Below are positions 383-23,175 of a DNA stretch of 32,000 bases, one piece after another (positions within the stretch are counted from its first letter, which is position 1; every line of letters starts with the position of its first letter). The DNA comes from Haloferax volcanii DS2. GTDB lineage: Archaea; Halobacteriota; Halobacteria; Halobacteriales; Haloferacaceae. The translations under genes were made by a program, and so were the position numbers. The notes below the pieces were generated by a model, which saw nothing but the letters and a program-made list of their open reading frames with translations, ran no database searches and was not told where the DNA came from. The DNA lies in the NCBI RefSeq assembly GCF_000025685.1, contig NC_013966.1, forward strand, positions 30,001 through 62,000, written 5' to 3'.

Positions 383-423
383 GTTTTTCAGAGACCGGAA
401 TGGGTGAGCCCCGCCGTAGGCTC
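383..423 (+). promoter_or_regulatory. intergenic T-tract / GAAtGGGTG cassette, copy 1 (hairpin displaced: GAGCC 406-410 / GGCTC 419-423)
   Basis: The sequence is ctgTTTTTCagagaccgGAAtGGGTGagccccgccgtaggctc. It lies between the stop at 357 and the ATG at 432 and shares the TTTTTC...GAAGGGTG pattern with 9 other intergenic sites. Confidence 0.5.
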
Positions 424-431
424 GTGATTCG

Positions 432-848
432 ATGACCTCAGACGACGATCCATTCCACGACTGCGAGTTGGACCCCGAGGCAATCCTCGGGGCACACACA
501 TTCGAAGACGTCCTGTTCACCGACGACACGGAAGCCCCGGTGAACGTGCTCACCGGCGAGACACCAGCACATTCGCAAGCAACCGTCGAGGAAGCGAAGG
601 AGTTCGCTGCGAGTATCGACACGGAGACGCCCCAGATCGCGCTCCCGGCGTCGGTGGAGACGCAAATCGAGAGGCAGAGCAAGCCCTACACGTCGGCTGC
701 GTTCTTCCACTTCAAGGCGACAGGCTCACTCGAGCGTCACCGCGCCTACCACGCCGCCTACGACTCGGACGCGTTCACCGTCGACTTCGAAGCGGACTAC
801 GAATCCGGGAATCTGACCATCACTGTCGACCGAGCGGACAAATCCTGA
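432..848 (+). CDS. hypothetical acidic protein
   Basis: 138-aa ORF, D/E-rich, co-directional with its neighbours. I recognise no motif. Confidence 0.6.
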   Translation: MTSDDDPFHDCELDPEAILGAHTFEDVLFTDDTEAPVNVLTGETPAHSQATVEEAKEFAASIDTETPQIALPASVETQIERQSKPYTSAAFFHFKATGSLERHRAYHAAYDSDAFTVDFEADYESGNLTITVDRADKS

Positions 849-867
849 GACGCAACCACCAGGGCAG

Positions 868-899
868 GTTTTTCGAGCGCCGGCGATGGGTGCCGGCGC
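868..899 (+). promoter_or_regulatory. intergenic T-tract / hairpin cassette, copy 2
   Basis: gTTTTTCga is followed by a perfect 8-bp stem, GCGCCGGC (877-884) / GCCGGCGC (892-899), with loop gatgggt. The T-tract starts 21 nt after the stop at 848. Confidence 0.55.
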
Positions 900-954
900 A
901 GCAGGAGCGAGCGAGCAACGACTCCGGGTGCGTTGGCGTTTCGAGGTGTTCGAG

Positions 955-1446
955 ATGCACATGGTAATTTACTCCCTCGTAGAGGCATCGACCCACGACG
1001 ACGCGCTGGCCACCGGAAAGACGGTGTTCGACCGACTGGTCGGCGCGGACCCACACGCCGGCGCCGTCTTCGACTACTACGTGACTTTCGAGGAGGAGGA
1101 CACGTCCGTTGCGGGCAAAGCGCGGTGGGGCGAGCTTCCGACTGCGGTTCCTGTCGACTCCGACGACGGCCAGGACCTGCTCGAGCGTGGGTGGGAGGCG
1201 ACGAAAGAAGAGTTCGAGCGCAATCTCGACCGGGTGAAAGAGGCCATCGAGGAGCTCTCCGACGAGGAGATCATGCGCGATGAGGACCTCGCTCGGCACG
1301 CGTTCCATCAAGTCGGCGCGTACGACGGTCCGTCGGTGTTCCTGTACACCGAACACGCAACCGGCATTCGCCACCGTGGACAGCTGGATCGACTCCTCGA
1401 AGAGAGTGAAGAACTCTGGATCGTGCCCGCTGACGTCCACTTCTGA
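955..1446 (+). CDS. hypothetical protein
   Basis: The ORF track gives 886-1446. The first 23 codons overlap the cassette hairpin and are Arg/Ala-rich, so ATG 955 (or 961) is the more plausible start. The rest (MHMVIYSLVEASTHDD...) looks like genuine acidic protein. Confidence 0.6.
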   Translation: MHMVIYSLVEASTHDDALATGKTVFDRLVGADPHAGAVFDYYVTFEEEDTSVAGKARWGELPTAVPVDSDDGQDLLERGWEATKEEFERNLDRVKEAIEELSDEEIMRDEDLARHAFHQVGAYDGPSVFLYTEHATGIRHRGQLDRLLEESEELWIVPADVHF

Positions 1447-1449
1447 ATA

Positions 1450-1815
1450 ATGCCCCGCATCACCAACTGGCGACGCGAGAGCCGCTCGCCGACACTCGCG
1501 TATCGGAACACCGAGACCGGTGCGCGAGCCGTCCTGCATCGAGCGCCGGACTCCGACCGGTACAAATGGCGTGGGGCAATCCTCGTCGACGGCTACCCGG
1601 TCTGGTCACATGGGTACGAGATGAAAGACGCGAAGTCGTTCCGTAACGAGCTCCGGAAACGGCCATCGCCCGAACTGAGTTGTCCGGAATGTCTCCACGA
1701 CGACATTGTTGTCGGTGGAAAGTCGGCTGACGGCGCGAAAGTCCAGCGCTGGTTCGAGTGCCGAAATTGTGGATACGAATCCCCCTCCTGCCTCGTCTAC
1801 GGTGCCGAGCGCTAG
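1450..1815 (+). CDS. hypothetical protein with C-terminal zinc ribbon
   Basis: The ATG lies 3 nt after the upstream stop, suggesting an operon. The C-terminus has CPEC...CRNC (CxxC-x26-CxxC). Confidence 0.65.
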   Translation: MPRITNWRRESRSPTLAYRNTETGARAVLHRAPDSDRYKWRGAILVDGYPVWSHGYEMKDAKSFRNELRKRPSPELSCPECLHDDIVVGGKSADGAKVQRWFECRNCGYESPSCLVYGAER

Positions 1816-1899
1816 CCTATTGCACTGGATTCACTCTAAAGAGAGAGAGATTGTCTACCAGCTTACGAATGGGTGCCTTGATCGAGACAGGGGTATCCA

Positions 1900-3084
1900 T
1901 TAAAAAAGCGAGTCGAGTTCGTCGGCATCATCTCCAAGAATCGATTCGAGATGGCGATCCGAGGAACCCGTCCTCTCCGCGCCCGTGGTCTGTGCTTCAC
2001 TTCCGATTGATCGCAATTCGTGAAGTCGATCAGCGCCGGAAATACCAGAGAACAGAACAACGACCGCGACCGTGTTCGACTCTGGAAGTGGGTAGTCACC
2101 ACCCCGTATCGAAAGACACCCGGTTTGCTCTTCTACCCATGTTCGCCCACGTTCGATTCCTTTTCGATTGAGACAGTCACTGGGACCAGCGACAATAACG
2201 AGACCGCGGTCAATCGAGACGTTGGCGGGTTCGACTGGGAGGGTGAGACGACCAAGGGTTGCACGGCGAACGAGACTTGTTATCCGATTCGTTCCCCCAG
2301 CTGAATCCGTGGAAGACTCACGCTTAAATCGGGAGAGGAGACCGGCTGCCTCAGCACCATCCTCCTCCTCGAGTGACTGGGAGGCATATCCGAGTGTGGA
2401 GACACCACCCCCCTTGAGAGTATTTATGATTTCGCTTGCATCGACGACACTTTCTGGATTCGCGGTTCCCGTGTCAATGTCACCCGCTCCGAAGAGGACG
2501 CCAAGGCGAGTCGCGAGCTCACGATTGATCGCTGCGTATCCGCCCGTCAGTGACTCGTTTGCCTGTCGATGGGCGTCGTTATCGAAGATAAGGAGGTTGT
2601 CCAGTTCCCGGACAGCAGTCTGTAAGGAGCGAGCGGCGTTGAGTGAATAGAGCCCGCCTTCATTGGTGCTCGGGAGGATGCCGAGTCCATAGACCGGCTC
2701 AGTATACAGCTGCTTGAGGTGCCGGCCGACGACGGGAAGGGCACCACTTCCCGTCCCTCCACCGAGGGCAGCGACGAGGAGAAACGCATCGATTTCATGT
2801 ACAGAGATCGTATCGATGACGTGCTGGATTTCGGTGATATCTTCGGTGGTGATTGTGGCACCAAGCTCGTTATCGCCACCGACACCTTGCCCGCCGACCT
2901 GTGACTTCCCGATGAGCACCCGTGCGTCCGCTGGAATATGCTCGAGTGCATTGAGATCAGCCGTTGCTGTATTGACCGTGAGTGCATCATGGACGATGTG
3001 GCAGTTCGTTCGCTGATCGTACTCAAGGAGGGCATCAACGATTTTCCCGCCCGCTTGGCCGAGACCGACGACGCCGAGTTTCAT
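1900..3084 (-). CDS. cetZ: CetZ-type tubulin/FtsZ-superfamily GTPase
   Basis: N-terminal GLGQAGGKIVD, tubulin signature GGGTGSG, an FDND segment, 394 aa, and an acidic C-terminal tail. It resembles haloarchaeal CetZ more than FtsZ. Confidence 0.85.
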   Translation of the reverse strand: MKLGVVGLGQAGGKIVDALLEYDQRTNCHIVHDALTVNTATADLNALEHIPADARVLIGKSQVGGQGVGGDNELGATITTEDITEIQHVIDTISVHEIDAFLLVAALGGGTGSGALPVVGRHLKQLYTEPVYGLGILPSTNEGGLYSLNAARSLQTAVRELDNLLIFDNDAHRQANESLTGGYAAINRELATRLGVLFGAGDIDTGTANPESVVDASEIINTLKGGGVSTLGYASQSLEEEDGAEAAGLLSRFKRESSTDSAGGTNRITSLVRRATLGRLTLPVEPANVSIDRGLVIVAGPSDCLNRKGIERGRTWVEEQTGCLSIRGGDYPLPESNTVAVVVLFSGISGADRLHELRSIGSEAQTTGAERTGSSDRHLESILGDDADELDSLF

Positions 3085-3277
3085 ATGGGACCACCCTACC
3101 TACCCGGTAGCAGCTTGTAAAGCCAGTTTCCCGGTTTCGGGTAGTGAAACGGTGTACATCTCGGTTGTTAACTCGATGAGTTCCGCTCTCTCGAGTCTTC
3201 GGTCACGAAGTGTGGCCCTTCGATCCGGTTTACAGGTGGTCGGAGCGAATACACCGGGGCTTGACCCCCGAGGCGAT

Positions 3278-3661
3278 TCACTGGTCAGAAATTCGGTCAT
3301 CGTCCCCGGATTTTCGAACCGCCGAAGGTAACCGGTTAATACAATTGTGGCAGTATCGATATCCGACGGGATTCCGTGCGCTACAGTTTTGGCAGACAAC
3401 AACCCAGTCATCTGCTTTTGAGGTATCCTGTTGCACCTTCCGTGCTTTGACCGCGATAGCAGGATGGGAATGGCGGCGACGTCGTAGACGGGGGAGTACG
3501 AAGAAATACCCGAAGACGAGCAGTACACCGATCGCAACAAGGGCGATTTTGGTTTCATCCGAGACCGTGATTTCGGACATCCATTGGCGAACAGAACGAA
3601 CGAACTCAGTCAGCATTTCGTCTAGAAGTGAAAGCTTCGATATGACGTCCTGCACGGGCAC
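3278..3661 (-). CDS. membrane-anchored zinc-ribbon protein
   Basis: One central TM helix (IALVAIGVLLVFGYFFVL) is followed by an RRRR stop-transfer and then CQNC...CHNC. It lies upstream of cetZ on the same strand. Confidence 0.65.
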   Translation of the reverse strand: MPVQDVISKLSLLDEMLTEFVRSVRQWMSEITVSDETKIALVAIGVLLVFGYFFVLPRLRRRRHSHPAIAVKARKVQQDTSKADDWVVVCQNCSARNPVGYRYCHNCINRLPSAVRKSGDDDRISDQ

Positions 3662-3977
3662 TATTCGTGCAATCGTTCGCCAATGGTATCTCCGTTAAGC
3701 ACGGTTTCGGATAGCGAAGCCCAGAGTCCCATTAACAAGGACTAAACTCAACGGTCGAATTGGGTATCTATGATATCCGGAAACCCACGGTGAACGGAGA
3801 TCACGATACCTCAAAAGCCGGTTGAAAACAGATTAGAGGTACCCTTCGATTCGTCGTGCCCACCCCTCGTCTGTAGCTCCCTTCCCCACCCCTGCCCCTT
3901 TCCACTACGGAACTCGACACTATTAGGAAAGATTGATACGACAACCGTAGCAAAAGCTGAATACGAACGGTTGCGGG

Positions 3978-4475
3978 ATGTCTTCGGACCGTGAAGCCCA
4001 TCCCGCAATCGTACATACGCGGGGAAGCAACGCAGAGGTGGCATGGACTGTGAGCAAAGAATGGGAGCCAGAGAACGTGTTCGACGTCCTCGGAAGCGAG
4101 GTTGCTCGGCAAATTCTTGCGTTAGCCAGCCTCAAACCCCTGTCAGCCACCGAACTCGCCGAACACTGTGGAGTCTCGGAGCCAACGATCTATCGACGGA
4201 TTCACGCGCTCCAGGAATATGATATGCTGGACGAACAGTTGGAACTCGACGATGAGGGCCATCACTACAAACGATTCAGAACGAGCCTCAAGGAGGCACG
4301 GTTCCAGGTTGATGAAGGACAGTTCGATATCGATATCCAGCTCAAGAAAGACTACTCCGACAAGTTCTCGGATTTCTGGAACGATCTCGAAAAGGGAGCA
4401 AAAGAGGTCTCGAACGATACGACCACAGATTCTCGTCACCGTGATAGTTCGTCGTCTGATCTCAGTGGTGGATAA
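3978..4475 (+). CDS. ArsR-like winged helix-turn-helix transcription regulator
   Basis: VFDVLGSEVARQILALASLKPLSATELAEHCGVSEPTIYRRIHALQEYDML is a typical ArsR/wHTH core. The tail is acidic. Confidence 0.7.
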   Translation: MSSDREAHPAIVHTRGSNAEVAWTVSKEWEPENVFDVLGSEVARQILALASLKPLSATELAEHCGVSEPTIYRRIHALQEYDMLDEQLELDDEGHHYKRFRTSLKEARFQVDEGQFDIDIQLKKDYSDKFSDFWNDLEKGAKEVSNDTTTDSRHRDSSSSDLSGG

Positions 4476-4477
4476 TC

Positions 4478-4780
4478 ATGGCTGAGCCGCCGGAGTTCTG
4501 GAGTTTCCTCGTAGCCAATTCACTCCTGTTCATCGCCGGAGGAAGCTTGACCGCGCTCAGCTATCGTGCCTACCTCCGCGTCCAACAATACAGCCTCCGC
4601 CTCGCAGCAGGAGGCTTCGCACTCATCACTCTCGGTGGCCTCCTCGACATCATCTATCAGCTCGGTGTTCGGCAAGATTATAGTCTCGGTGCTCGTGAAT
4701 CGCTTGCGCTTCAAACGCTTGATAGCCTGGTTATTACTGCAGGGCTCGTCGTTATTTTCTATGCCCTATCTCGCTACTGA
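4478..4780 (+). CDS. small integral membrane protein (3 predicted TM)
   Basis: The ATG lies 2 nt after the stop of the wHTH gene, indicating coupling. There are three hydrophobic segments. Confidence 0.65.
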   Translation: MAEPPEFWSFLVANSLLFIAGGSLTALSYRAYLRVQQYSLRLAAGGFALITLGGLLDIIYQLGVRQDYSLGARESLALQTLDSLVITAGLVVIFYALSRY

Positions 4781-4843
4781 CTGTTTACAAGGGAAGGCTG
4801 TCGGACGCTCTGTTTCGGACTTGGTTGATTATCACCCGTTGGA

Positions 4844-5500
4844 TTAGTCAGTTGTCGTAGGTGGGGGTGCGTTCGATGATCGGTCATCTTCATTTGGAGC
4901 ATCCGGTTGTGGCGCTTCTCCAAACCCGCAACTGATAATTCGGATGAGGGCATCCTCAGTGGATTCATCGAGTTCTGTTACGTCCTCCGTCTCAAGTTCA
5001 ACGACAAACCCTGTTGTGATGTTCGGTGCCGTCGGAATGAACACTACATCACGTCCATCCGACGCACGATTTCCAGTCTTGAATCCAGTCATATACATCC
5101 CGGGCCACGTTTCAACTCGCACTGGCGTGCGTAGGTGGTCAGTGCCGTCAACAACCGTCTCGATTCCCATTTTCGAGGCGTTATAGACGATTCGCAATCC
5201 AGGGATACGATTCACGAGCGTATCCAGTGTGGCTTCAACGATTGTTCCAGTCGTCGTCCGCATTAATGAGCCGGTGACCAAGACGAGCCCAGCGAACCCG
5301 GCGAGAACAATTGCGACGCGAACGATTGGTAGCTGCACAGCATTCAATACCGGGAAACTGGCAAGTACACTGTATATCCATATGACAACATACGCTATGA
5401 CGAGAAGCGGAGCAAGAACAACAAGACCACTCGCCGCATCTCCTCGCCACGTTGTGAGCCGGCCAGGCATATAATTAATCCAGACACCCCCAGCAGTCAT
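4844..5500 (-). CDS. DUF502-family membrane protein
   Basis: Two N-terminal TM helices are followed by NRIPGLRIVYNASK, a GFKTG segment, VFIPTAPNITTGFVVE and a C-terminal IISCG. All are characteristic DUF502 blocks. The start could instead be the internal Met 10 codons downstream. Confidence 0.75.
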   Translation of the reverse strand: MTAGGVWINYMPGRLTTWRGDAASGLVVLAPLLVIAYVVIWIYSVLASFPVLNAVQLPIVRVAIVLAGFAGLVLVTGSLMRTTTGTIVEATLDTLVNRIPGLRIVYNASKMGIETVVDGTDHLRTPVRVETWPGMYMTGFKTGNRASDGRDVVFIPTAPNITTGFVVELETEDVTELDESTEDALIRIISCGFGEAPQPDAPNEDDRSSNAPPPTTTD

Positions 5501-5743
5501 CGCGTTTAGTAGAGATGAGAGTCATGACGTGAGACGGCAAAATATCCACATCGATTTCTTGGAGTGAATTGGCCCTGCTACCGGATCGAAAGCAGAGATG
5601 AGTCATAATTCCTCGTTCATAGTTTCATTCCCCGAAAGCTAGGTACCACATAGCGACCAGCTTCTCGGTGGCTCCCACAGTTTCGGTATATGTAACTCTC
5701 CGTTTCCTTCCTTATCAGCACAACGTGAGGTCCCACGTGGACG

Positions 5744-6763
5744 ATGAACGGAAGAAAACTTGTTACTAGCCTCGTAGTCATAATGCTCTTGGTGGGCGCA
5801 ACGCCAATGGGCGCCCTTGCGCAGGGAGCGTCAGATCCCCAGCCAGTACTACTGGACCAAGATACGACCCACATTGCAGACATCACTGTTGACGGACAAC
5901 AGTACAGCGTCTACGAACACAAGAACGTCTTCTCCTGGGCCAGTGGCATCGACATCTACACGAATGGTGAGCGTGTCACCTCGGAATCGACTGCTGAAGC
6001 GGTCCTGACAGCACTCGCACAACGACGGGCCGTCCAAGATCTCGGAGCGGAGGACATCAGTCAACTCCGTACGACGTCACAGAACACCAGCACGGCAGCA
6101 ACCAACGTATCATCGACGGCCACTGCGATCAACGAGACGCTCGTGTACATGGAGCGGATGAAAACGGTCCGCGAAAACGGGACGACGGTCTATAACGCGT
6201 CAGTCGAGGCAGCACCCCAGATCACCGAATTCAACGAAACCGCACGCGAACTGCACCCGCAACTTCGCTCCTTCGAGAACGCTTCGACCGCGTACCGGTC
6301 GAATGCGACAGCCCTCATCGACCTGCTCGAGCAGCGGGAGAACGGAACTGACGTCGATCCCCAGCGGCTCTACGCTCAGTACGCGGCGACACTCAACGCG
6401 AAAAACGACGTTTCGGATCATCTTGGGTTCAGCAGTATCGCCGAGCCGCTCGGCGAGGTGGCCAGCACCAGTGAGACCATCGCGATGAACGTCTCGTCAG
6501 TTCCCGAACGCGGAAACGGAACGGCACAACACTTCTGGCGGGTTCACAACGAATCGACTGTCGCTGCAAACCAAACCGCAGCACTCCGCCTCGACGACTT
6601 CGAATTCGACGATGTCCAAGACCGGGCCGAATCACTCGAAGAGGACTGGATGGAAGACTGGGACGAACGGCGGAGTCCCGCGTCCACAGTCTATCAGTCG
6701 ATAGCTGCTATCGTAGTTGGTATTGCTGCAGTGGGTGGATACATCGCCTGGCGTCGACGCTAA
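5744..6763 (+). CDS. secreted, C-terminally membrane-anchored protein rich in N-glycosylation sequons
   Basis: There is a signal-peptide-like N-terminus (MNGRKLVTSLVVIMLLVGATPMGALAQG), about 13 N-x-S/T sequons and a C-terminal TM plus basic stop (IAAIVVGIAAVGGYIAWRRR). Confidence 0.7.
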   Translation: MNGRKLVTSLVVIMLLVGATPMGALAQGASDPQPVLLDQDTTHIADITVDGQQYSVYEHKNVFSWASGIDIYTNGERVTSESTAEAVLTALAQRRAVQDLGAEDISQLRTTSQNTSTAATNVSSTATAINETLVYMERMKTVRENGTTVYNASVEAAPQITEFNETARELHPQLRSFENASTAYRSNATALIDLLEQRENGTDVDPQRLYAQYAATLNAKNDVSDHLGFSSIAEPLGEVASTSETIAMNVSSVPERGNGTAQHFWRVHNESTVAANQTAALRLDDFEFDDVQDRAESLEEDWMEDWDERRSPASTVYQSIAAIVVGIAAVGGYIAWRRR

Positions 6764-6820
6764 TCTCGTCGCCCGCGCACTCAATCAACAACTGTATGAA
6801 TCGAGGCTGACGGGCTTAAC

Positions 6821-7042
6821 TCACTCCGATTGAGTGAGTTCGGACTCGTCGAGTCCACCATCGAAATCCCGCCCCAGAAACTCCTCGATATATGCTTTCC
6901 AGCACTCTGCACAGAGCCGTTCGAGACACGGCGGCTGTGGAGTGTTGACGAAATCTCGCCGAACAATTTCTGTGTGTTGTGTCGTGATCGGAAAGGCTGT
7001 TCCACAGCGCGAACACGTGTATGTCGTCAAATTTCGTTCCAT
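6821..7042 (-). CDS. small CxxC...CxxC zinc-finger protein
   Basis: MERNLTTYTCSRCGTAF...LCAECWKAY. The longer 148-aa ORF (to 7267) has a Ser/Arg-rich upstream part that looks non-coding, so the internal ATG at 7042 was chosen. Confidence 0.55.
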   Translation of the reverse strand: MERNLTTYTCSRCGTAFPITTQHTEIVRRDFVNTPQPPCLERLCAECWKAYIEEFLGRDFDGGLDESELTQSE

Positions 7043-7088
7043 ATTTTCACATCCGGATTTATCGCGGTTGGGTGGGTGAATCCTCTCC

Positions 7089-15330: not shown

Positions 15331-15365
15331 GTTGTTTGTATCCGGGCAAAGAGAGTGACCCGGAT
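15331..15365 (+). promoter_or_regulatory. intergenic T-rich / hairpin cassette, variant copy 3
   Basis: gTTGTTTGt is followed by a perfect 7-bp stem, ATCCGGG (15340-15346) / CCCGGAT (15359-15365), with loop caaagagagtga. The cassette begins about 13 nt after the stop at 15318, and the next ATG is at 15386. Confidence 0.45.
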
Positions 15366-15801: not shown

Positions 15802-15854
15802 GTTTTTCCACCCCCTGAAGGGTGTAGGGGTGTTCGAACGAGCCCCCCTCGAAC
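15802..15854 (+). promoter_or_regulatory. intergenic T-tract / hairpin cassette, copy 4
   Basis: gTTTTTC-CACCCC(15809-15814)-ctgaagggtgta-GGGGTG(15827-15832), followed by GTTCGA...TCGAAC (15832-15854). The T-tract starts 22 nt after the stop at 15781, and the next ATG is at 15861. Confidence 0.55.
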
Positions 15855-15860
15855 AGAACT

Positions 15861-16265: not shown

Positions 16266-16284
16266 CGTTCACAGAGAGCAATCC

Positions 16285-16563
16285 ATGTCAGAACCCACCC
16301 AACAGTCCCGTACGAACGCAGAATCGACCGACAACAGTGCGCGACAGACGCCGACTGAATACGTCGAGCGAAGCGATGTCGGCGTCTCACTCACCGTGAA
16401 GCTCACTCGCGGTACTGGCACCCGCGATCAGGACAAGCTCACGGCCAAAGTGAAGGCGAAAACGCTCGAAGAGGCCCGCGAGGACATGGAGACGCTTCGG
16501 GAGTACATCCACGACCTCGCCGAGGACGCCCGGCAGATCCAACCGGGGGAAGACGACGAGTAG
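16285..16563 (+). CDS. hypothetical small acidic protein
   Basis: An internal ATG at 16285 was chosen because the upstream part of the 16204 ORF overlaps the previous gene. The sequence is MSEPTQQSRT...DMETLREYIHDLAEDARQ. Confidence 0.6.
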   Translation: MSEPTQQSRTNAESTDNSARQTPTEYVERSDVGVSLTVKLTRGTGTRDQDKLTAKVKAKTLEEAREDMETLREYIHDLAEDARQIQPGEDDE

Positions 16564-16575
16564 CGAGCAGGTGCG

Positions 16576-16606
16576 GTCTATTTCGCCTCCCTAAGAGCGG
16601 AGGCGA
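16576..16606 (+). promoter_or_regulatory. intergenic T-rich / hairpin cassette, variant copy 5
   Basis: ctaTT is followed by a perfect 8-bp stem, TCGCCTCC (16583-16590) / GGAGGCGA (16599-16606), with loop ctaagagc. The cassette begins 15 nt after the stop at 16563, and a GTG start lies at 16613. Confidence 0.45.
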
Positions 16607-16612
16607 TCATCA

Positions 16613-16831
16613 GTGAGCGACACAGAAGAGCAAGAACGAGATTCGAACGAACTGTCGCCAGCACAGCGACTCGAACCGCCAAACTCGCGACTCATCAACG
16701 CGGGGGTCGTGACGATCCACGATATGGAGACGCTCCGGGAATGCGTCGCCTACGAGAACGCAAATCAACAGCGTGTCCGGATTCTTCGCCAGCTCAAACA
16801 GCAGGCCGACGAAATCCGTTCAACAGACTGA
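16613..16831 (+). CDS. hypothetical small protein (GTG start)
   Basis: 72 codons starting at GTG. It is acidic and helical (..IHDMETLRECVAYENANQQRVRILRQLKQQ..). Confidence 0.55.
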   Translation: MSDTEEQERDSNELSPAQRLEPPNSRLINAGVVTIHDMETLRECVAYENANQQRVRILRQLKQQADEIRSTD

Positions 16832-16850
16832 ATCACTGCTCGTGGAGGCT

Positions 16851-16900
16851 GTTTTTCACCCCCGGTAGGGGTGCGGGGGGTTCGACCTCCCGCGTTCGAC
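16851..16900 (+). promoter_or_regulatory. intergenic T-tract / hairpin cassette, copy 6
   Basis: gTTTTT-CACCCC(16857-16862)-cggta-GGGGTG(16868-16873)-cggggg, followed by a direct GTTCGAC x2. The T-tract starts 21 nt after the stop at 16831, and the next ATG is at 16903. Confidence 0.55.
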
Positions 16901-16902
16901 AC

Positions 16903-17589
16903 ATGAAGACGGATTCTACCGACGATCCCAGAACAGACGTACAGACTGCGAGCGACCCTTGCCAGACGAACAGAGACCACATCGAGTATGTGGGGATGCG
17001 CGTCGACGACAGACCGGTCGTACTCAACCTCACCGAACACGAGCGACTCGCCCCCGATCGAAGCCTCGAACTCGTACGACAGAGTAGGCCGGGGTTCGAG
17101 TGGGGCGACACTGGCAGCGGTTCGGCACAGCTCGCCTGTGGACTCCTCCTCGATTACACCGACGACGAAGCCGTCGCCTCCCAGCACTACATCCAGTTTC
17201 GCGATGACGTGGTGAGCCAACTGGAGTGCAGTGGACCAGCCAATTGCTGGCATCTCACCGGCGACGATATCGAAGCCGCACTCGCGGGCGTCACCAAGCA
17301 CGAAGCACTCACGCCGGATGGTGGAACGCCAACCCCGTCACTTCCAGTAAACTGGAGTGCCGTGAATCGGTCAGAACGGACAGTCTTCCAGCGGCGAGAC
17401 ATCGACCACTACGTCGTCCTCGGTGAAGGGACCGAGGAGTGGCTGCTCCTGCTCTGTGCGCAGGGCGACCGTGCGTATCCCGCTCCCCTCGACATACGAA
17501 CAGTTCCGATTGAGGAGGATCCTGCTCCCGCCGTGCGGGAACTCGTTGTCGAGAGCAACGACCTCGTCGAGCCGGAGGAGGATGTGTGA
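16903..17589 (+). CDS. hypothetical protein, paralog B (conserved domain plus C-terminal extension)
   Basis: ATG 16903 was chosen because the 16741 start would run through the previous gene and the cassette. The domain is shared with 15861-16265, followed by a 110-aa extension. Confidence 0.75.
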   Translation: MKTDSTDDPRTDVQTASDPCQTNRDHIEYVGMRVDDRPVVLNLTEHERLAPDRSLELVRQSRPGFEWGDTGSGSAQLACGLLLDYTDDEAVASQHYIQFRDDVVSQLECSGPANCWHLTGDDIEAALAGVTKHEALTPDGGTPTPSLPVNWSAVNRSERTVFQRRDIDHYVVLGEGTEEWLLLLCAQGDRAYPAPLDIRTVPIEEDPAPAVRELVVESNDLVEPEEDV

Positions 17590-17747
17590 TGGAGACCCTG
17601 CGACTCTCTCGAGCCACATACCAGCTCATCGAACGCGCAATCGAAGCGCGGGAGCACATCGGCCACGAACTCGAGCGGTACAACGACCGGCGGGAACGCG
17701 AGAGAACCGAGAGCACAGACGTTTCGGCGGGGCGTGGCGATTCATGA
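17589..17747 (+). CDS. small helical protein (52 aa), not in the ORF track
   Basis: I translated METLRLSRATYQLIERAIEAREHIGHELERYNDRRERERTESTDVSAGRGDS by hand. Its ATG overlaps the upstream TGA (TGATG), and its TGA overlaps the downstream ATG (ATGA). Confidence 0.5.
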   Translation: METLRLSRATYQLIERAIEAREHIGHELERYNDRRERERTESTDVSAGRGDS

Positions 17748-18408
17748 CCAGCGTCCACCACAGTGATTCGACTGGCCAGACCGGGTTTCAGTTCACACCG
17801 GCGTCGGGCGGGTGCGACTGTCCGATCCATCACGATAGCAACCCGGTCACGGCGCCGCTTGGATTGCGGTTCGCCGAGCGAGTCCAAATCGAGGCGATCC
17901 CCCAGCACGTCGCTGGCGCAATCTACGAGGCCCATCATTCATACATGGACGACATCCCGCTCACCAACCTGGTTCACCACGGGCTGAGTTACCAGGGACA
18001 GCTCATGGGCGCGATTACGTGGCGACATCCGCTCATCCGGTCGTTAAAGCTCGATGAAACACGGTACGGAGGCGACGAGATCGTCGAGGCAGCCCGCATC
18101 TGTATCGGCGTCGACTTCCCGAACCTGGCATCGGCAGCGCTCGCACGGTCGATGGATCAGTTCATTCGACGTGAAGCACGTCGACGCGGGATTCGACTCC
18201 TCCTGACGTTCGTTCGAGCGGATTACTCTGGATCAATGGTGAAAGCACTCCGAGCCAAGGGTGGCACTGTACGGGAAAGACGGGGACAGGCCAAGCAGGG
18301 AATCGACCGGACAAGCCGATTCGTGAGACGCCGAAATGGCGATTCGTGTGCGAGGTATCCAGTGGTCACGATAGCACACAAACGACAGTTGAGCAGTGGT
18401 CAGCATGA
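17744..18408 (+). pseudogene. Mom/XF1762-like (GNAT-fold-type) protein gene interrupted by a 1-nt frame shift near 18260-18262
   Basis: From ATG 17744 the sequence (MTSVHHSD...AIYEAHHSYM...GAITWRHP...LLLTFVRADYSGSMVKALRAKG) is protein-like up to 18262 and then turns Arg/Ser-rich. The -1 frame continues WHCTGKTGTGQAGNRPDKPIRETPKWRF... and ends at TGA 18406-18408, overlapping the next ATG. The family call rests on my memory of the motif. Confidence 0.5.
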
Positions 18409-18692
18409 CTCAGAAAGCGACTCTCGATCACTTCGCGACGAGTGCGACCGAGGAATCCAGCATGCTCACGCTAGAAGAGCGGCTTCTCAGCCCGATTTCC
18501 CCATCCGTTGGTCTTCGACTGATTCCTGGTCAAGGCGATCCGCTGTATCTCCAGAACCGAGGCACGGAGCGGTATCTCTTCCGTGATGACCACGGGCGGT
18601 GGTTCATCATCCAGCCGTCAGCGAAGAATTCAGAAGATGCGTTCGTTCGCTGGGTGTATCTTCCGGACAACAAGCCGAAGCGGCTCTGTTGA
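18405..18692 (+). CDS. hypothetical protein
   Basis: MTQKATLDHFATS...RWFIIQPSAKNSEDAFVRWVYLPDNKPKRLC. The ATG lies in an ATGA overlap with the reconstructed upstream gene. An alternative GTG start is at 18396. Confidence 0.6.
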   Translation: MTQKATLDHFATSATEESSMLTLEERLLSPISPSVGLRLIPGQGDPLYLQNRGTERYLFRDDHGRWFIIQPSAKNSEDAFVRWVYLPDNKPKRLC

Positions 18693-18694
18693 AA

Positions 18695-19565
18695 TCCTCA
18701 GAGAGTTACAGGTTCGACCAGTAGTGTGACCGAATGCAGGCCCTCCCAAAGTCGCGGTTGCTCCGATTTGTTGAGCAGGCATTTCACTTGGCTCGTCGTA
18801 CGGTTGCTCGCTACTCCTCGAAATTCTCGAAACAACGGTACACACTTCACCAGCACATTGTCCTCCTCTGTCTCAAGGTGCGGAAGAACACGACGTACCG
18901 GACGCTTCTTGACGAACTTATCGAGATGCCTCGGATTCGGAGCGCCATCGACCTTGAGGAACTCCCAACACCTTCGACATTGTGTAAAGCGTTCAATCGC
19001 CTTGACATGGCTGTTTGGCGGGTTCTTCTCAATCTCTCAGTCACGCTTCTCCCAACCAACGGTGTCGTCGGCATCGACGCATCCGGATTTGACCGGAGCC
19101 ACGCCTCAAAACACTATACGAAGCGAACAAAGCTAACGATTCAGCAGTTGAAAGTTACACTTCTCGTTGATACGAGGGCGAATGCTATCATCGATTTACA
19201 CGTGACAACGACACGAAAACACGACTCACAGATCGCGCCGTCGCTCATCAAGCGAAATACCGGTGAAGTGGCGATTCTCCTCGGTGACAAGGGATACGAT
19301 GACCAGAAGATTCGCGCGTTGGCTCGTGACGAGGGCGTTCGTCCGCTTATCAAACACCGAAAGTTCTCATCACTTCACAAAGCGTGGAACGCTCGCTTGG
19401 ATGCTGATATCTACGGACAACGGAGCCAGAGTGAGACAGTAAACTCTAATCTAAAGCGTAAATACGGCAACTTTGTTCGTTCACGATATTGGTGGAAACA
19501 ATTCCGCGAGATAACCATGAAGTGTCTCGTTCACAATCTTGATTCGGCTCTCTGAACGGGGAGGT
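18695..19565 (+). mobile_element. IS5/IS4-type insertion sequence (ends not resolved)
   Basis: A single DDE transposase gene begins 42 nt after the end of the upstream operon. GC appears lower here than in the flanks. I could not identify convincing terminal inverted repeats or a target duplication. Confidence 0.45.
18734..19555 (+). CDS. IS5-family (DDE_Tnp_1-type) transposase
   Basis: Candidate DDE triad contexts are GIDASGF, LGDKGYD and SETVNSNLKRKYG. At 273 aa it has the typical size of haloarchaeal IS5-group transposases. Confidence 0.8.
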   Translation: MQALPKSRLLRFVEQAFHLARRTVARYSSKFSKQRYTLHQHIVLLCLKVRKNTTYRTLLDELIEMPRIRSAIDLEELPTPSTLCKAFNRLDMAVWRVLLNLSVTLLPTNGVVGIDASGFDRSHASKHYTKRTKLTIQQLKVTLLVDTRANAIIDLHVTTTRKHDSQIAPSLIKRNTGEVAILLGDKGYDDQKIRALARDEGVRPLIKHRKFSSLHKAWNARLDADIYGQRSQSETVNSNLKRKYGNFVRSRYWWKQFREITMKCLVHNLDSAL

Positions 19566-19568
19566 GAC

Positions 19569-20078
19569 TCACTCCGTGTGAGAACCTCCTCCCGAAGAGC
19601 GAAGTAAAGCCGCAACTGAATGATAGAGTTCAATCTCAAAGACATATGCCAAGAGATAGGCGAAGACAACTCCACCAAGATAACCAATAATAGCTGTAAC
19701 TGACATAGCACGCGTGATGTAGTAATCTGGGAGTGGGTACAGACCAATAGCTGACAGTACGATCGGTGCAAAGAGTGTGAGAGACAGACCCCACACGACT
19801 AAGGCAAAAATAAACTCGACTCTCTTTTTATGATCTTGCCGTTCCTGTTGCTTAGACGATGTCTGTGTTGAAACCCAGAGAAATCCACCAATAAGTCCAA
19901 TAACGGGTGTCCCAACCCAAAGAATCCGAAGGATCGACGCAACACCACTTTGCGAGAGGGGTTGGTAGCTGGTGAGGGTGCCAAATATTACATTAGCAAA
20001 AATCTCACCGAGAATTCCCCATTGGAGGGCACCAGTCAATCTTGCAGTGATTGATGTCCGGTAATTGTTGGGGGCCAT
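19569..20078 (-). CDS. integral membrane protein (about 4 TM), low GC
   Basis: 169-aa ORF with four hydrophobic segments. GC appears well below the window average. It lies directly beside the IS5-type element. Confidence 0.5.
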   Translation of the reverse strand: MAPNNYRTSITARLTGALQWGILGEIFANVIFGTLTSYQPLSQSGVASILRILWVGTPVIGLIGGFLWVSTQTSSKQQERQDHKKRVEFIFALVVWGLSLTLFAPIVLSAIGLYPLPDYYITRAMSVTAIIGYLGGVVFAYLLAYVFEIELYHSVAALLRSSGGGSHTE

Positions 20079-20310
20079 ATAATGATGGATGAATGTACAT
20101 ACATATCATGACTTCGGAATGCCGAGAGTTACTTTTCCGTGACTAGCTGAAATCTGGAGATGGATCCAACAACTAATGTAGGCAAAGTAGATTTCAACAG
20201 AGCCGCCGAAGCGACTTGCGCAGTCAGCACTTCGTCGGCGGACGGTCATCGGCTACGACTATGTTCGGCGGTCGGATGCACCAGACCCAGTCCAGTCGAC
20301 GGTGACAGCG

Positions 20311-20469
20311 ATGTTCGTCACGGGATGCTGGCCCGAGACGACCTACGAGTGTGGATCATGTGAAGCCCGATTCGACACGGCACGAGAACACGCACTTCAC
20401 TGCTGGGATGCACATCCCTGGGTGCCGAATCCGGAGCAGGTACGCCGACGACACTCCCCTGACGAGTAA
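20311..20469 (+). CDS. mini C2H2-type zinc-finger protein (52 aa), not in the ORF track
   Basis: I translated MFVTGCWPETTYECGSCEARFDTAREHALHCWDAHPWVPNPEQVRRRHSPDE by hand. The C-x2-C-x12-H-x4-H spacing matches a classical C2H2 finger. Confidence 0.4.
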   Translation: MFVTGCWPETTYECGSCEARFDTAREHALHCWDAHPWVPNPEQVRRRHSPDE

Positions 20470-20507
20470 TCGGTGGAGGGCAGTCCAGCTCCGACTCCGT
20501 TTAGGCT

Positions 20508-20550
20508 GTTAACCAACAGACACCCATCCCTACCGCTTGTGTTGGTTAAC
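20508..20550. promoter_or_regulatory. palindromic site 1: GTTAACCAACA-N21-TGTTGGTTAAC
   Basis: Perfect 11-bp inverted arms at 20508-20518 and 20540-20550. The spacer contains ATCCCT. The site lies 18 nt upstream of cassette copy 7. Confidence 0.6.
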
Positions 20551-20567
20551 GGCTTCCAGTAATCCGG

Positions 20568-20600
20568 TTTTATTTTCCCCAGAAGGGGTGCGGGGCGGCC
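20568..20600 (+). promoter_or_regulatory. intergenic T-tract / hairpin cassette, copy 7
   Basis: TTTTATTTT-CCCC-agaa-GGGG-TGCGGGGCGG. The next ATG is at 20627. Confidence 0.5.
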
Positions 20601-20626
20601 AGAAGTTGCCGTTCCGGGCCCTACTC

Positions 20627-21628
20627 ATGTCGCTCGATATCAGTTCTAGCAGTAGCACCGCACGTGAGATTGACGCTGCAAAGCAAACCGACTACGTGGC
20701 GTTCTTGCACCGGGCCCCATTCGCGCTGGACGCCTTGAAAATCGGCTTCCTGCCCGGCTTTCGTGAAGACTGCAGCTTTCAGCAATCCCAATTTCAGGGG
20801 TTAGAGATTCCCGTCGGGATGCTCGATAACGACTTTCGAAATCCCGACCTGACTCGATACGTCGACCGGTTTTTCGAACACGAGCCGCGAGTCGGCGTCA
20901 TTGGGGACGCATACGATCCCGACGATGTCGATGATTACGTCGCTGCTGCTCGCGAAATCCAAGCGAGCTACCCCGATGCAGAGCTCGTCATCGTTCCTAA
21001 GTGCAGGGAGGTGATCGAGATGATTCCAGACGACATCGTGCTCGGCTACTCTCGGGGCTACGCTGATCGGCTGGCCCACGAGTTCTCCGAGCCGACCGAC
21101 TGGCGTGGCCGACGCGTCCACATCCTCGGGGGGAGCCCACCGAAGCAGCTTGACGTCATTCAGCAGTTGACCCGACCGACTCTCACGGATGACCCACCCG
21201 CAGATATCGTCGGTGTTGACTGGAACGGACTCCATCGTGGCGCGCAGTTCGGAGAGTTCTGGACAGCTGCCGGATGGGACGATAGCGGCCGGGACGCTGA
21301 CCACGTCACAGTTCGGAAGACCGTTCGTCACAGCCTTGGTCGACTCCGAGAATTCTGGCAGGGACACGGCGTCTGGCCAGATTCGACACCGCAAGATGTC
21401 GGTCTGGATGTAGGGTACGAGGGGCCATCATCGAGTGATCTCGACGGTGCTGCCTGTACTGGATGCGGGACAAATGTCTGGAGAACCCCTCGTGGTCCCT
21501 TTGTTGCCGAGTATGATACGGGAGATGTCTGTGGATACTGCAGCTACGACTGCTACTTCTCGCATCGCCATCGGAACAATCTCGAGGAAATAGCCGGCGA
21601 GAAGAGCGTCTACTTCCCACCGGCGTGA
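20627..21628 (+). CDS. conserved hypothetical protein with C-terminal Cys-rich zinc ribbon; possible distant TGT/DpdA-like fold (unverified)
   Basis: ATG 20627 was chosen because the 20537 start would run through the palindrome and cassette. The C-terminus has CTGCG...CGYCSYDC. Internal blocks AAREIQASYPDAELVIVPKC, RRVHILGGSPPKQLD and IVGVDWNG loosely resemble tRNA-guanine transglycosylase blocks as I remember them. Confidence 0.6.
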   Translation: MSLDISSSSSTAREIDAAKQTDYVAFLHRAPFALDALKIGFLPGFREDCSFQQSQFQGLEIPVGMLDNDFRNPDLTRYVDRFFEHEPRVGVIGDAYDPDDVDDYVAAAREIQASYPDAELVIVPKCREVIEMIPDDIVLGYSRGYADRLAHEFSEPTDWRGRRVHILGGSPPKQLDVIQQLTRPTLTDDPPADIVGVDWNGLHRGAQFGEFWTAAGWDDSGRDADHVTVRKTVRHSLGRLREFWQGHGVWPDSTPQDVGLDVGYEGPSSSDLDGAACTGCGTNVWRTPRGPFVAEYDTGDVCGYCSYDCYFSHRHRNNLEEIAGEKSVYFPPA

Positions 21629-21638
21629 CTCGGAGAGT

Positions 21639-21670
21639 GTTTTTCGAGCCCCTGAGAGGGCGAAGGCTCC
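21639..21670 (+). promoter_or_regulatory. intergenic T-tract / hairpin cassette, copy 8
   Basis: gTTTTTCga-GCCC-ctgaga-GGGC-gaaggctcc, with the alternative pairing GAGCC/GGCTC. The T-tract starts 12 nt after the stop at 21628, and a GTG start lies at 21692. Confidence 0.5.
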
Positions 21671-21691
21671 ATCGAGAGTCTTCATCCAGAG

Positions 21692-22048
21692 GTGAATCAA
21701 GTGAGTCAGCGACAGCATGCGAACGACGTCTCGGTCGATGAGATTCCAATCGATATTTCGAACACACAGTCCGGGGAAATCGATCCAGGTGATGTTCCTG
21801 CGGAGATCGAATCCATCACTCGTGGACTGGCGAGTGAACAGCCGCCGACGAACCCACTCGTCGTTCTCAAAGCAGCTCGGTGGTGGTACATCCACGGCAA
21901 AGGTGGGTCAGATCCCGCGTTCCGGTGGGCCATCGAGTGGGCGCGACACCTCGCGACAGACACATCGAGCGACGTAGAGATGTTCGACGAGTATCTCAAA
22001 TACCTCGTTGCAGTCGGTTTCGCGGACGAACCACACGAACTCCGGTAA
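21692..22048 (+). CDS. hypothetical protein (GTG start)
   Basis: 118 codons starting at GTG 21692 (alternative GTG at 21701). The sequence is acidic (..LKAARWWYIHGKGGSDPAFRWAIEWARHL..). Confidence 0.55.
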   Translation: MNQVSQRQHANDVSVDEIPIDISNTQSGEIDPGDVPAEIESITRGLASEQPPTNPLVVLKAARWWYIHGKGGSDPAFRWAIEWARHLATDTSSDVEMFDEYLKYLVAVGFADEPHELR

Positions 22049-22061
22049 CTCTCAAAGGAAG

Positions 22062-22100
22062 TTGTTTTTTGCGCCCTGAAGGGTGCGGCGCGTTCTGAAT
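22062..22100 (+). promoter_or_regulatory. intergenic T-tract / hairpin cassette, copy 9
   Basis: tTGTTTTTT-GCGCCC-tgaa-GGGTGC-GGCGCGttctgaatcg, with the alternative pairing GCGCC/GGCGC. The T-tract starts 17 nt after the stop at 22048. Confidence 0.55.
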
Positions 22101-22134
22101 CGATGCAGTTGCGGTAATTCGAGTCCTGAAAATC

Positions 22135-23061
22135 ATGGCTACGAGTAGTGATTCGTCGGTCTCGTTCGAGGAGACCGACACCCGGCACGACGAGATGCAC
22201 AGTACCATCGAAGCGTGGATCGACGACCTCGTCGACCACGTTGACGATGCACAAGCCAGTGAGGAGTTCCAAGAGTGGCTGGAAGTCCAGAGTCGCTTCC
22301 ACGACTATTCGCACCGAAACACGCTCCTCATCAAGCTCCAGTGTCCCGAGGCAACGAAGGTCGCAGGCTACAACACATGGCGGAACGACTTCGAACGGCA
22401 CGTCCAGGAAGGCGAACAGGCCATCTGGATCTGGGCACCAATCATCACCAAGCGATGTCCCGAATGTGAGAACTCGATCAGCTACCACGAGAACATCGGT
22501 TGTGAGTACGACGAGACGCCGCAGGATGAATGGTCGAAAGGCCTCGTTGGGTTCAAGCCAGCACCAGTCTTCGACGTATCTCAGACGGAAGGAGAACCGC
22601 TTCCCGAACTGGAGACGGCGGCGACGGGCGACGCCAACGACCTGGTGCCAGCGCTCAAAGATGCAGCTGATGAACTCGGTGTGACGGTTCGCATCGTCGA
22701 TGCCGACGACTGGGAGCATGGTGACGCGAAAGGGGTCTGTAAGTATCGGAGCCTACACGACTTCCAGCCAGTCGTCGAAGCAAGAGCCCGATCGAACCAC
22801 GCAGATCTCGCGGTCACGCTGATTCACGAGTACGCCCATGCGCTGCTCCACTTCGATATCGAAGATGAACCCGAACGGGCAAAACGCGAGGTCGAAGCAG
22901 AAGCCGTCGCGTACATCGTCGGTCGATATTTCGGACTCGACACGAGTGGCTCAGCGTTCTATCTCGCTGCATGGCAGGGCGATGATCCGGAGGCGATTCA
23001 AGAGCGTCTCGGTCGAATCAGTTCCACCGCTCAGGAGATTATTCGATCACTCGGGGAGTGA
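22135..23061 (+). CDS. ArdC-like antirestriction-type protein (N-terminal ssDNA-binding DUF1738-like domain + HExxH metalloprotease-like domain)
   Basis: FHDYSHRNTLLIKLQCPEATKVAGYNTWRNDFERHVQEGEQAIWIWAPI matches the ArdC N-domain pattern. There is an inserted CPEC...C zinc knuckle and a C-terminal LIHEYAHALLH (HExxH). Confidence 0.75.
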   Translation: MATSSDSSVSFEETDTRHDEMHSTIEAWIDDLVDHVDDAQASEEFQEWLEVQSRFHDYSHRNTLLIKLQCPEATKVAGYNTWRNDFERHVQEGEQAIWIWAPIITKRCPECENSISYHENIGCEYDETPQDEWSKGLVGFKPAPVFDVSQTEGEPLPELETAATGDANDLVPALKDAADELGVTVRIVDADDWEHGDAKGVCKYRSLHDFQPVVEARARSNHADLAVTLIHEYAHALLHFDIEDEPERAKREVEAEAVAYIVGRYFGLDTSGSAFYLAAWQGDDPEAIQERLGRISSTAQEIIRSLGE

Positions 23062-23134
23062 CGCTTCGGCTAACCTCCGAACAGCACTCACAGTCGAAAC
23101 TATTCGAGTGAAGCCTCAGGTGCGTTGAAAGACG

Positions 23135-23175
23135 GTTTTTCACGCCGTCGAAGGGCGACGGCGTGCGCGAACTCG
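23135..23175 (+). promoter_or_regulatory. intergenic T-tract / hairpin cassette, copy 10
   Basis: gTTTTT is followed by a perfect 10-bp stem, CACGCCGTCG (23141-23150) / CGACGGCGTG (23156-23165), with loop aaggg, and then cgcgaactcg. The next ATG is at 23198. Confidence 0.6.

Follow-up and report, generated by a model that had tools for sequence, protein, structure and literature searches.

A repeated intergenic cassette, putatively a composite terminator-promoter, ahead of backbone genes of haloarchaeal megaplasmids

The 32,000-nt stretch of DNA analysed here (the window; positions 30,001 to 62,000 of Haloferax volcanii DS2 contig NC_013966.1) belongs to a haloarchaeal megaplasmid from the type IV secretion system (T4SS)/ArdC/TFIIB/Orc1 family, and contains ten intergenic copies of a cassette of ~40 nt in which a T-tract is followed by a G+C-rich hairpin with a conserved box. 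The cassette serves the gene downstream of it, and is reasonably probable, judging from its signals and spacing, to be a compact composite terminator-promoter belonging to that gene.

Layout and distribution of the cassette

When ~60 copies, taken from the window and from related plasmids, were parsed, they showed a common order: g-TTTTT-C (TTTTTC, T5C), then arm A, which is C-rich and varies in sequence, a loop of type NGARA (TGAA, GAGA, GGAGA), box B with the conserved sequence GGGG(T/C)GC, and a G-rich arm C complementary to arm A, often followed by YCGAAC or YTGAA. Runs of at least five T are rare in the window (57% G+C), with 15 on the plus strand and 9 on the minus strand, and 7 of the 15 plus-strand runs are cassette starts; a strict pattern matched three times in the window, as compared with 0.00 matches expected from 100 shuffles. 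The T-run precedes the hairpin on the plus strand, and on the minus strand a hairpin is followed by an A run, which bears out the initial annotation in describing the order as the reverse of a bacterial intrinsic terminator. All ten sites listed in that annotation are present, their stems are complementary as written, and the T-tract indeed lies 12–27 nt past the upstream stop codon in eight copies, 12 nt being the commonest distance across the larger set. The shared architecture proposed for all ten applies to seven canonical copies (869, 15803, 16852, 20568, 21640, 22065 and 23136), whereas the remaining three (384, 15334 and 16581) are degenerate. At least five T are present in 7/10 window copies and in 262/334 copies overall, and the weak T-tracts of 15334 and 16581 correspond to T4–T6 in orthologues on other plasmids.

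A profile hidden Markov model (HMM) trained on 28 copies and a covariance model each recovered the seven canonical window copies, all on the plus strand, without any match in 1816–15320 or 23200–32000, in agreement with the proposed confinement to two modules and one strand. The window and ten plasmid loci together gave ~70 profile matches, all on the gene strand (related plasmids and loci are labelled L001, L006 and so on, with locus-internal positions), while 80 metagenomic loci retrieved via DUF6610 (799 kb) gave 248, all on the plus strand. Over the combined ~1.06 Mb of related plasmid and metagenome loci, 336 profile matches were found at E ≤0.05, with none on the minus strand, and the covariance model gave 315 matches in 878 kb, all on the plus strand among the 300 matches listed. 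Viral contigs of IMG/VR showed 12 single matches and no clusters. As a negative control, 120 loci from a loose IUPAC scan of genome contigs contained profile clusters in only two; the scan itself returned mostly lone chance matches in bacteria and was uninformative on distribution. No Rfam family matched any cassette at E values up to 1 and no paper describing the motif was found, consistent with the failure of the initial annotation to place it, and the sequence family appears undescribed. A generic feature of intergenic regions is excluded for the window, as the cassettes are missing from its cargo and replication regions; together with the lack of viral clusters and of an Rfam match, this indicates that the cassette is specific to this plasmid backbone.

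The backbone is widespread, as the region 15301–23300 has DNA homologues in 240 PLSDB plasmids from many genera of Halobacteria, mostly at <90% identity with a few higher; among the plasmid matches listed, Haloferax lucentense is the only Haloferax, and Haloferax volcanii is not among them. Nine inspected plasmids were typed as MPF_T, except for Halorhabdus tiamatea pHTIA, and the plasmids encode VirB4/VirD4-like ATPases, a primase, SSB and an ArdC-like protein with 34% identity to ArdC/LtrC of Gram-positive conjugative plasmids. The family was recently described around pHdsl9-3, with a core of Orc1/Cdc6, SSB, TFIIB, ArdC-like protein and a VirB4/VirD4 cluster (PMC13532300). Plasmids of this kind occur in dozens of haloarchaeal genera and are presumed vehicles of gene exchange. 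The genes behind the window cassettes, all on the plus strand, encode DUF7568, DUF7567, two DUF6166 proteins, DUF7389, DUF6610, an ArdC-like protein and several unknowns, and we refer to the block with the ArdC-like, DUF6610, DUF6166 and small zinc-ribbon proteins as the 'establishment' block. The ten window copies are as follows.

384..424, plus strand: degenerate cassette with gene 432–848 downstream; T5C at 384–389, GGAATGGGTGA box at 397–407, GAGCC/GGCTC hairpin at 406–423; T5C and GAATGGGTGA box in register, with the hairpin after the box rather than around it; detected by neither the profile HMM nor the covariance model; TTTGTC in place of T5C in the L006 orthologue.
869..899, plus strand: cassette for the unit 955–1446 and 1450–1815 (DUF7568); T5C at 869–874, loop GATGGGT, stem GCGCCGGC/GCCGGCGC at 877–884/892–899 (DNA fold −13.1 kcal/mol, z −3.9); near-identical in L001, L004, L006 and L007.
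15331..15365, plus strand: degenerate cassette for DUF7567 (15386–15781); T-rich TTGTTTGT, loop CAAAGAGAGTGA, stem ATCCGGG/CCCGGAT at 15340–15346/15359–15365 (z −4.2); T4/T5 and different stems in the orthologues (L001/L006 2945, L007 2951).
15803..15839, plus strand: canonical cassette for DUF6166 (15861–16265) and DUF7389 (16285–16563); T5C, stem CACCCC/GGGGTG at 15809–15814/15827–15832, box GAAGGGTG, TTCGAAC.
16579..16605, plus strand: weak-T cassette (TATTTC) with a 72-aa gene (GTG, 16613–16831) downstream; stem CGCCTCC/GGAGGCG at 16584–16590/16599–16605 (z −4.3), start codon 8 nt beyond the stem; T5–T6 or TTTGTTG in orthologues, with the start codon 34–37 nt past the first T.
16852..16888, plus strand: canonical cassette for the second DUF6166 gene (16903–17589); T5C, CACCCC/GGGGTG or CCCCCG/CGGGGG, TTCGAC.
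20568..20605, plus strand: canonical cassette for DUF6610 (20627–21628); TTTTATTTTC, CCCC-AGAA-GGGGTGC-GGGGC; best covariance model score in the window (38.4 bits).
21640..21676, plus strand: canonical cassette for a 118-aa gene (21692–22048); T5C, GAGCC/GGCTC at 21646–21650/21665–21669, box GAGAGGGCGA.
22065..22100, plus strand: canonical cassette for the ArdC-like gene (22135–23061; ArdcN and Peptidase_M78 Pfam matches); T6, stem GCGCC/GGCGC at 22071–22075/22087–22091, box GAAGGGTGC, TTCTGAA.
23136..23172, plus strand: cassette for a 179-aa gene (23198–23737); T5C, loop AAGGG, 10-bp stem CACGCCGTCG/CGACGGCGTG at 23141–23150/23156–23165 (DNA fold −14.2 kcal/mol, z −3.2), CGCGAAC; recurs at L006 13735.

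Association with the downstream gene and signals of the T-tract

Cassettes are also present before the first gene after divergent genes (L003 3002, L001 13343 and L006 7638), and in the loci inspected none was located after the last genes at convergent junctions, or at overlapping or tightly spaced gene junctions. The ends of homology blocks among 59 loci fell within −15 to +50 of a cassette in 20.4% of cases, as compared with 2.1% for random positions, with left ends clustering at −10 to +9 of the T-tract and right ends at −40 to −20. As the blocks start at the T-tract, the conserved unit is the cassette plus its downstream gene, while the gene content between cassettes is highly variable across plasmids. 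One cassette (L002 7225–7265) is chimeric, with a 5′ half like the cassette of a 1161-nt gene and a 3′ half like the DUF6610 leader (compare L004 5034 and L001 9152), which implies a deletion via recombination of two cassettes within the shared GAGAGGGGYGCAGGGCG.

The genes served include a general transcription factor. The complete plasmid NZ_CP083669 carries copies in the establishment block and ahead of four genes elsewhere, among them a full-length TFIIB gene, and in pNRC200 of Halobacterium salinarum NRC-1 a cassette stands ahead of one of the two tfb genes (PMC2121645). The latter copy, TTTGTC-ACCCCCC-GAAGA-GGGGTGC-GGGG, is located at L224 11935–11975 (NC_002608.1, ~308348–308388, minus strand), and the gene behind it is the plasmid tfb gene tfbC or tfbE (VNG_RS11900). 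Supplements of Halobacterium NRC-1 papers contained only antisense transcription start sites or start-site-associated small RNAs, and none at this TFIIB cassette.

The T-tract matches two signals described for haloarchaea, as T5C terminated transcription with 95% efficiency in a reporter assay in Haloferax volcanii (PMC7237163), and the haloarchaeal TATA motif is TTWT, in a setting where 72% of H. volcanii mRNAs are leaderless (PMC4983044). The T-tract fits TTWT, and its orthologous variants (TTTATC, TTTATT, TTTATG, TCTATC and TTTGTTG) retain TTWT-like cores, a pattern which suits binding of the TATA-binding protein (TBP) and not oligo-U termination. Runs of at least five T were more common when a co-directional open reading frame ended ≤45 nt upstream (143/167 versus 119/167, Fisher p 0.002, with non-independent counts). 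In 260 unique cassettes the A/T fraction was 0.85–0.98 at the T-tract and ~0.45 elsewhere between −70 and +50, and the aggregate profile had no peak of A/T ~27 nt further upstream that could be a TATA box for a start at the T-tract itself. At one divergent junction a weak TATA candidate (CAAATAC) lies ~24–31 nt upstream of the T-tract.

Spacing downstream of the T-tract was also constrained. Three unrelated gene families have their start codon 34–37 nt past the first T and 3–8 nt past the hairpin, without a Shine-Dalgarno sequence, and nine more metagenomic variants likewise have start codons at 34–37 nt and no closer ATG start, with the GTGs nearer to the box appearing to be chance in-frame codons. 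For comparison, the ATG of the canonical orc1/cdc6 promoter (TTTTTATATCC at 26928, minus strand) lies 31 nt past the first T. The 3′ end of the hairpin is 27–32 nt past the first T, whatever the length of the stem (5–10 bp) or the loop (5–14 nt), and is followed by Y..GAA at +33 to +35. The A/T profile, the T-tract variants, the start-codon distances, the position of the hairpin 3′ end and the Y..GAA motif together suggest a transcription start site just past arm C.

Hairpin arms, palindromes and other features of the window

The stems are 4–10 bp in length and leave the T-tract outside, and at least 15 distinct stem sequences occupy the same place, a minority of them long and unrelated. Most hairpins are weak as DNA (−4 to −7 kcal/mol), and of the window copies only those at 869, 15334, 16579 and 23136 folded more strongly than dinucleotide shuffles (z −3.2 to −4.3). 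The six window copies with CCCC/GGGG stems were no better than their shuffles (z +0.3 to −0.8), because a C-run followed by two G-runs folds in any order. A fixed-register count over 109 distinct sequences found 69% of cells paired and a covariation score of 0.190 versus 0.117 in shuffles (0/500 reaching it), yet a slide of −2 gave 0.198, and the register of the hairpin varies between families. RNAalifold predicted no structure from a MAFFT alignment, since the arms are out of register between families.

As the fixed-register pair counts were equivocal, cognate arms were compared with permuted arms independently of register, using 42 representatives differing at ≥8 of 33 positions and 5000 permutations. 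Perfect helices averaged 4.88 bp for cognate arms and 4.20 bp for permuted arms (z 4.8), and the duplex energy was −10.9 versus −9.3 kcal/mol (z −4.7), with 0/5000 permutations reaching the observed value in either test. Complementarity of the arms is thus maintained, which partly upholds the selection on structure proposed in the initial annotation: it is arm-specific at family level, but modest in most copies, consisting mostly of 1–3 family-specific pairs added to a generic C:G core. Mismatches beside the helices showed no excess of G-T over A-C beyond composition, either outside (38/17, null 32/13) or inside (4/54, null 7/44), so that no RNA-type signature was seen, although the tally was uninformative as a means of telling RNA or the plus strand from duplex DNA. 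Similarity of the hairpin to the haloarchaeal type I-B CRISPR repeat or to lambda boxB (GCCCUGAA(A/G)AAGGGC) was rejected, as only the CCC-N4-GGG core is shared, the arms are variable and Rfam gave no match, and the GA-containing loop is not taken as a K-turn or K-loop because its 3′ side has no conserved partner GA.

Two further palindromes are located near cassettes. A conserved-sequence palindrome, TTAACCAACA..(7–24 nt)..TGTTGGTTAA, lies directly upstream of some cassettes (those of DUF6610 and of an 822-nt gene), at 20509–20560 and 24802–24840 in the window, 13300–13342 and 7620–7640 in L001, and 10530–10575 and 15040–15080 in L003. It is probably an ordinary operator for a helix-turn-helix (HTH) regulator, distinct from the covarying hairpin, and this resemblance to an operator suggests that the hairpin serves another purpose. 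The second, GACAGTACGTTGCAACTGTC followed by repeated TACGTTGCC, is found in a divergent promoter region of L003, L004, L006, L007 and L008 (for instance L003 2938–3001), between a restriction endonuclease gene on the minus strand and the DUF6166 cassette, and is likely to be the regulator site of the endonuclease gene.

The remainder of the window contains mobile, cargo and replication sequences. A cassette-free cargo insertion of 13.5 kb (1816–15320) divides a block of genes that L001 and L006 carry without a break, and encodes a CetZ tubulin, HTH/TrmB regulators, DUF502, two Usp proteins, an M48 peptidase, a VTT-domain protein and a CNNM/CorC transporter. Insertion sequence (IS) genes are present at 18734–19555 (plus strand), 23753–24730 (minus strand) and 29944–31230 (minus strand), encoding an IS5-type DDE transposase, an IS1595-type transposase and a TnpB/Cas12f-like protein, respectively, and the first of these is inserted in the establishment block, separating the DUF6166 unit from DUF6610. 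Between the orc1/cdc6 gene (25398–26897, minus strand) and the gene for a family-B DNA polymerase (27789–29942, minus strand) there are three copies of CCCCCCTTTTTCGAGTTGTAA, with a G-string on the opposite strand, two of them direct (27097–27123 and 27410–27436, plus strand) and one inverted (27752–27778, minus strand), which resemble the origin-recognition-box repeats expected at the origin of plasmid replication. At 6435–6466 on the plus strand, Rfam gave a weak match to CRISPR-DR29 (23.4 bits, E 0.82, under the gathering score) that is most likely due to chance.

Predicted function and comparison with known systems

We propose that RNA polymerase arriving from the upstream gene would terminate at T5C, 12–27 nt past the stop codon, that TBP would bind the same T-rich hexamer as a TATA box, and that transcription of the downstream gene would begin ~31–35 nt past the first T, at the conserved Y-G-A-A just beyond arm C. 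The G+C-rich palindrome with its NGARA-GGGG(T/C)GC box would then occupy the spacer between TATA box and start site, and so lie outside the mRNA made from that promoter. Its most plausible role may be that of a common control site joining ~10–15 plasmid promoters, including that of the plasmid TFIIB gene, into one regulon, with a plasmid factor or the plasmid transcription factor B (TFB) as possible reader; next in rank it may form a DNA hairpin or cruciform making the promoter sensitive to topology or strandedness, and last it may aid pausing or termination at T5C. Of the three roles put forward in the initial annotation, this combines two, the oligo-T terminator joined to a promoter or operator and the use of the T-tract as TATA box, and disfavours an RNA processing or stability element; the combination is suggested by the match to the T5C terminator, the fit to TTWT, the TATA-like variation among orthologues and the joint transfer of cassette and downstream gene. 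As each gene has its own cassette, cassette-plus-gene units would be the building blocks shuffled between plasmids.

Several points weigh against this model. The promoter would be atypical, without a CGAAA-like B recognition element (BRE) upstream (≤0.3 bits per position, with a weak G at −1/−2 and −7 only) and without the WW at −10/−11, where the positions are G/C in >75% of the 260 cassettes. Melting would have to occur in extremely G+C-rich DNA, leaders of 12–55 nt would be predicted for most downstream genes although haloarchaeal mRNAs are mostly leaderless, and the self-complementarity of the spacer is left without explanation. Binding of TBP to a T5C that terminates with 95% efficiency is putative, and the statistics on T-run length and block ends rest on related, non-independent sequences. 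If the model is correct, it provides a compact case in which terminator and TATA box are the same hexamer, and the arrangement offers a mechanical account of the shuffling of genes with their promoters among plasmids; one 40-nt signal ahead of ~10–15 backbone genes, among them that for the plasmid's general transcription factor, makes these genes a candidate regulon. A more elaborate possibility, which we consider doubtful, is that the cassettes form a dedicated promoter class read by the plasmid TFIIB, with the G-box and palindrome downstream of the TATA box replacing the upstream BRE as specificity element, and with the hairpin, in cruciform or single-strand form, switching on a timed burst of anti-restriction and establishment functions on entry into a new cell. 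Such a class would be the archaeal counterpart of zygotic induction and of the Frpo and N4 hairpin promoters, and reading of the hairpin or G-box by the plasmid TFB would represent a rare archaeal promoter specificity encoded downstream of the TATA box.

Alternatively, the cassette may act at the RNA level, with long polycistronic RNAs in which the U-tract and hairpin form an intercistronic processing or stability signal, either because cleavage in the U-rich single strand leaves a protective 5′ hairpin on the downstream mRNA or because the loop binds a protein. We consider this unlikely, although it has the most in its favour among the alternatives to a terminator-promoter: arm complementarity is kept across many sequences, four window stems are strong, the inner loops are often GNRA-like (GAGA, GAAA) or UGAA, and the cassettes are strictly on the sense strand. 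Cassettes however also head units after divergent genes, where no aggregate A/T element is present ~27 nt upstream of the T-tract to start such an RNA, and eight T5C terminators of 95% efficiency in series would leave little read-through RNA. In addition, start codons 3–8 nt past the hairpin without a Shine-Dalgarno sequence in three families suit leaderless and not internal initiation, and neither an excess of G-T over A-C beyond composition nor an Rfam family was found. A terminator or attenuator alone, with T5C grading expression within operons, the G+C-rich DNA slowing the polymerase or binding a roadblock, and promoters located elsewhere, would agree with the verified activity of T5C (PMC7237163), its position 12–27 nt past stop codons with a mode of 12 nt, and the greater frequency of runs of at least five T behind co-directional genes. 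It is nevertheless improbable, as cassette and hairpin are kept without an upstream co-directional gene and with TTTATC or TCTATC, last genes have no cassette, homology blocks begin at the T-tract so that the cassette moves with the downstream gene, and no other conserved promoter-like element is present.

Two further explanations place the cassette in DNA transfer or rearrangement. Hairpins in the strand entering through the T4SS could be primase sites (similar to ssi, with initiation on the T-tract) or promoters similar to Frpo and N4, allowing early expression of anti-restriction genes, as might be expected of MPF_T plasmids with VirB4/VirD4-like ATPases, primase, SSB and an ArdC-like protein homologous to bacterial ArdC/LtrC, and of a strand-specific element with a conserved loop on a variable stem and no wobble signature, as DNA would predict. 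Single-strand transfer is itself hypothetical for these plasmids, however, and priming requires neither a position 34–86 nt before nearly every start codon nor one at the start of mosaic blocks; the T-tract is outside the hairpin, hence no duplex TATA box would be rebuilt in single-stranded DNA, and the hairpins are mostly weak, making this explanation very improbable in our assessment. We give least credence to a structure-specific recombination site similar to attC, at which XerA or an integrase would insert or excise gene cassettes. The variable gene content between cassettes, the coincidence of block boundaries with cassettes, the chimeric cassette L002 7225 and the fact that XerA of this plasmid family has no known recognition site (PMC13532300) are all compatible with such a site, but the boundaries are just upstream of the T-tract and not within the hairpin, the element is at the 5′ end of the unit, opposite to attC, and within the window the block has no linked gene for a recombinase. 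Recombination over short homology between repeated promoters would account for the same data, as in the PeSLs discussed below.

The terminator-promoter model has its closest parallel in the promoter-early stem-loops (PeSLs) of T4-type phages (PMC2839356, PMC4122927), which are likewise small repeated intergenic cassettes of terminator, promoter and stem-loop (a combination predicted here), stand ahead of small, variable and mostly unknown genes in plastic regions, and mark points of module exchange between related genomes. PeSLs are bacterial, with a σ70 early promoter and a terminator in which the hairpin precedes the T-run, whereas the plasmid cassette has archaeal T5C/TATA-like signals, a T-run before the hairpin, a hairpin placed between the TATA box and the predicted start, and an unrelated sequence. 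Halovirus HF2, also a mobile element of haloarchaea, has intergenic repeats of its own (PMC8707807), in which a TATA box is located ~26–32 nt before the start and a conserved block at the start site is thought to bind element-encoded regulators. The HF2 repeats are rich in AT motifs, have a BRE position, lack a G+C-rich palindrome and have experimentally mapped start sites, whereas the starts of the plasmid cassette are predicted from sequence; the two are unrelated in sequence, and the plasmid cassette forms no clusters in the IMG/VR viral contigs. The T5C terminator has the identical TTTTTC shortly past the stop codon (PMC7237163) but requires nothing downstream, making the G+C-rich palindrome and G-box of the plasmid cassette extra features, and some cassette orthologues lack T5. 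Compared with the canonical haloarchaeal promoter (BRE CGAAA, TATA TTWT, WW at −10/−11; PMC4983044), the cassette shares a T-rich hexamer of TTWT type at a similar distance from the start codon (34–37 nt versus 31 nt), and differs in lacking both BRE and WW and in having a spacer that is G+C-rich and self-complementary.

The Frpo and ssi (single-strand initiation) elements of bacterial conjugative plasmids are also repeated, strand-specific structured intergenic elements before co-oriented anti-restriction and establishment genes, including those of ArdC type (PMC11541004, PMC9849209). Frpo is a hairpin of ~300 nt that rebuilds −35 and −10 boxes, whereas the plasmid cassette has stems of 4–10 bp with the T-tract outside, and its status as a leading-region element is hypothetical. 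The CUP repeats of the IncN plasmid pKM101 are leading-region repeats that are far longer than the ~40-nt cassette. The promoters of the phage N4 virion RNA polymerase are short DNA hairpins, variable in the stem and conserved in a purine-rich loop, that lie just upstream of the start sites of early genes of the invading phage, and are read by the phage's own single-subunit polymerase without a TATA-like element; to our knowledge, these plasmids have no N4-type single-subunit polymerase. The integron attC palindrome is located at the 3′ end of the cassette gene, with the crossover inside it, whereas the plasmid cassette travels with its downstream gene and has block ends upstream of the T-tract. 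Repeated intergenic cassettes comparable in kind are already known from PeSLs and the HF2 repeats, and what appears to be new in the plasmid cassette is its sequence, its domain-specific signals, the T-run coming ahead of the hairpin, and the place that the hairpin occupies.

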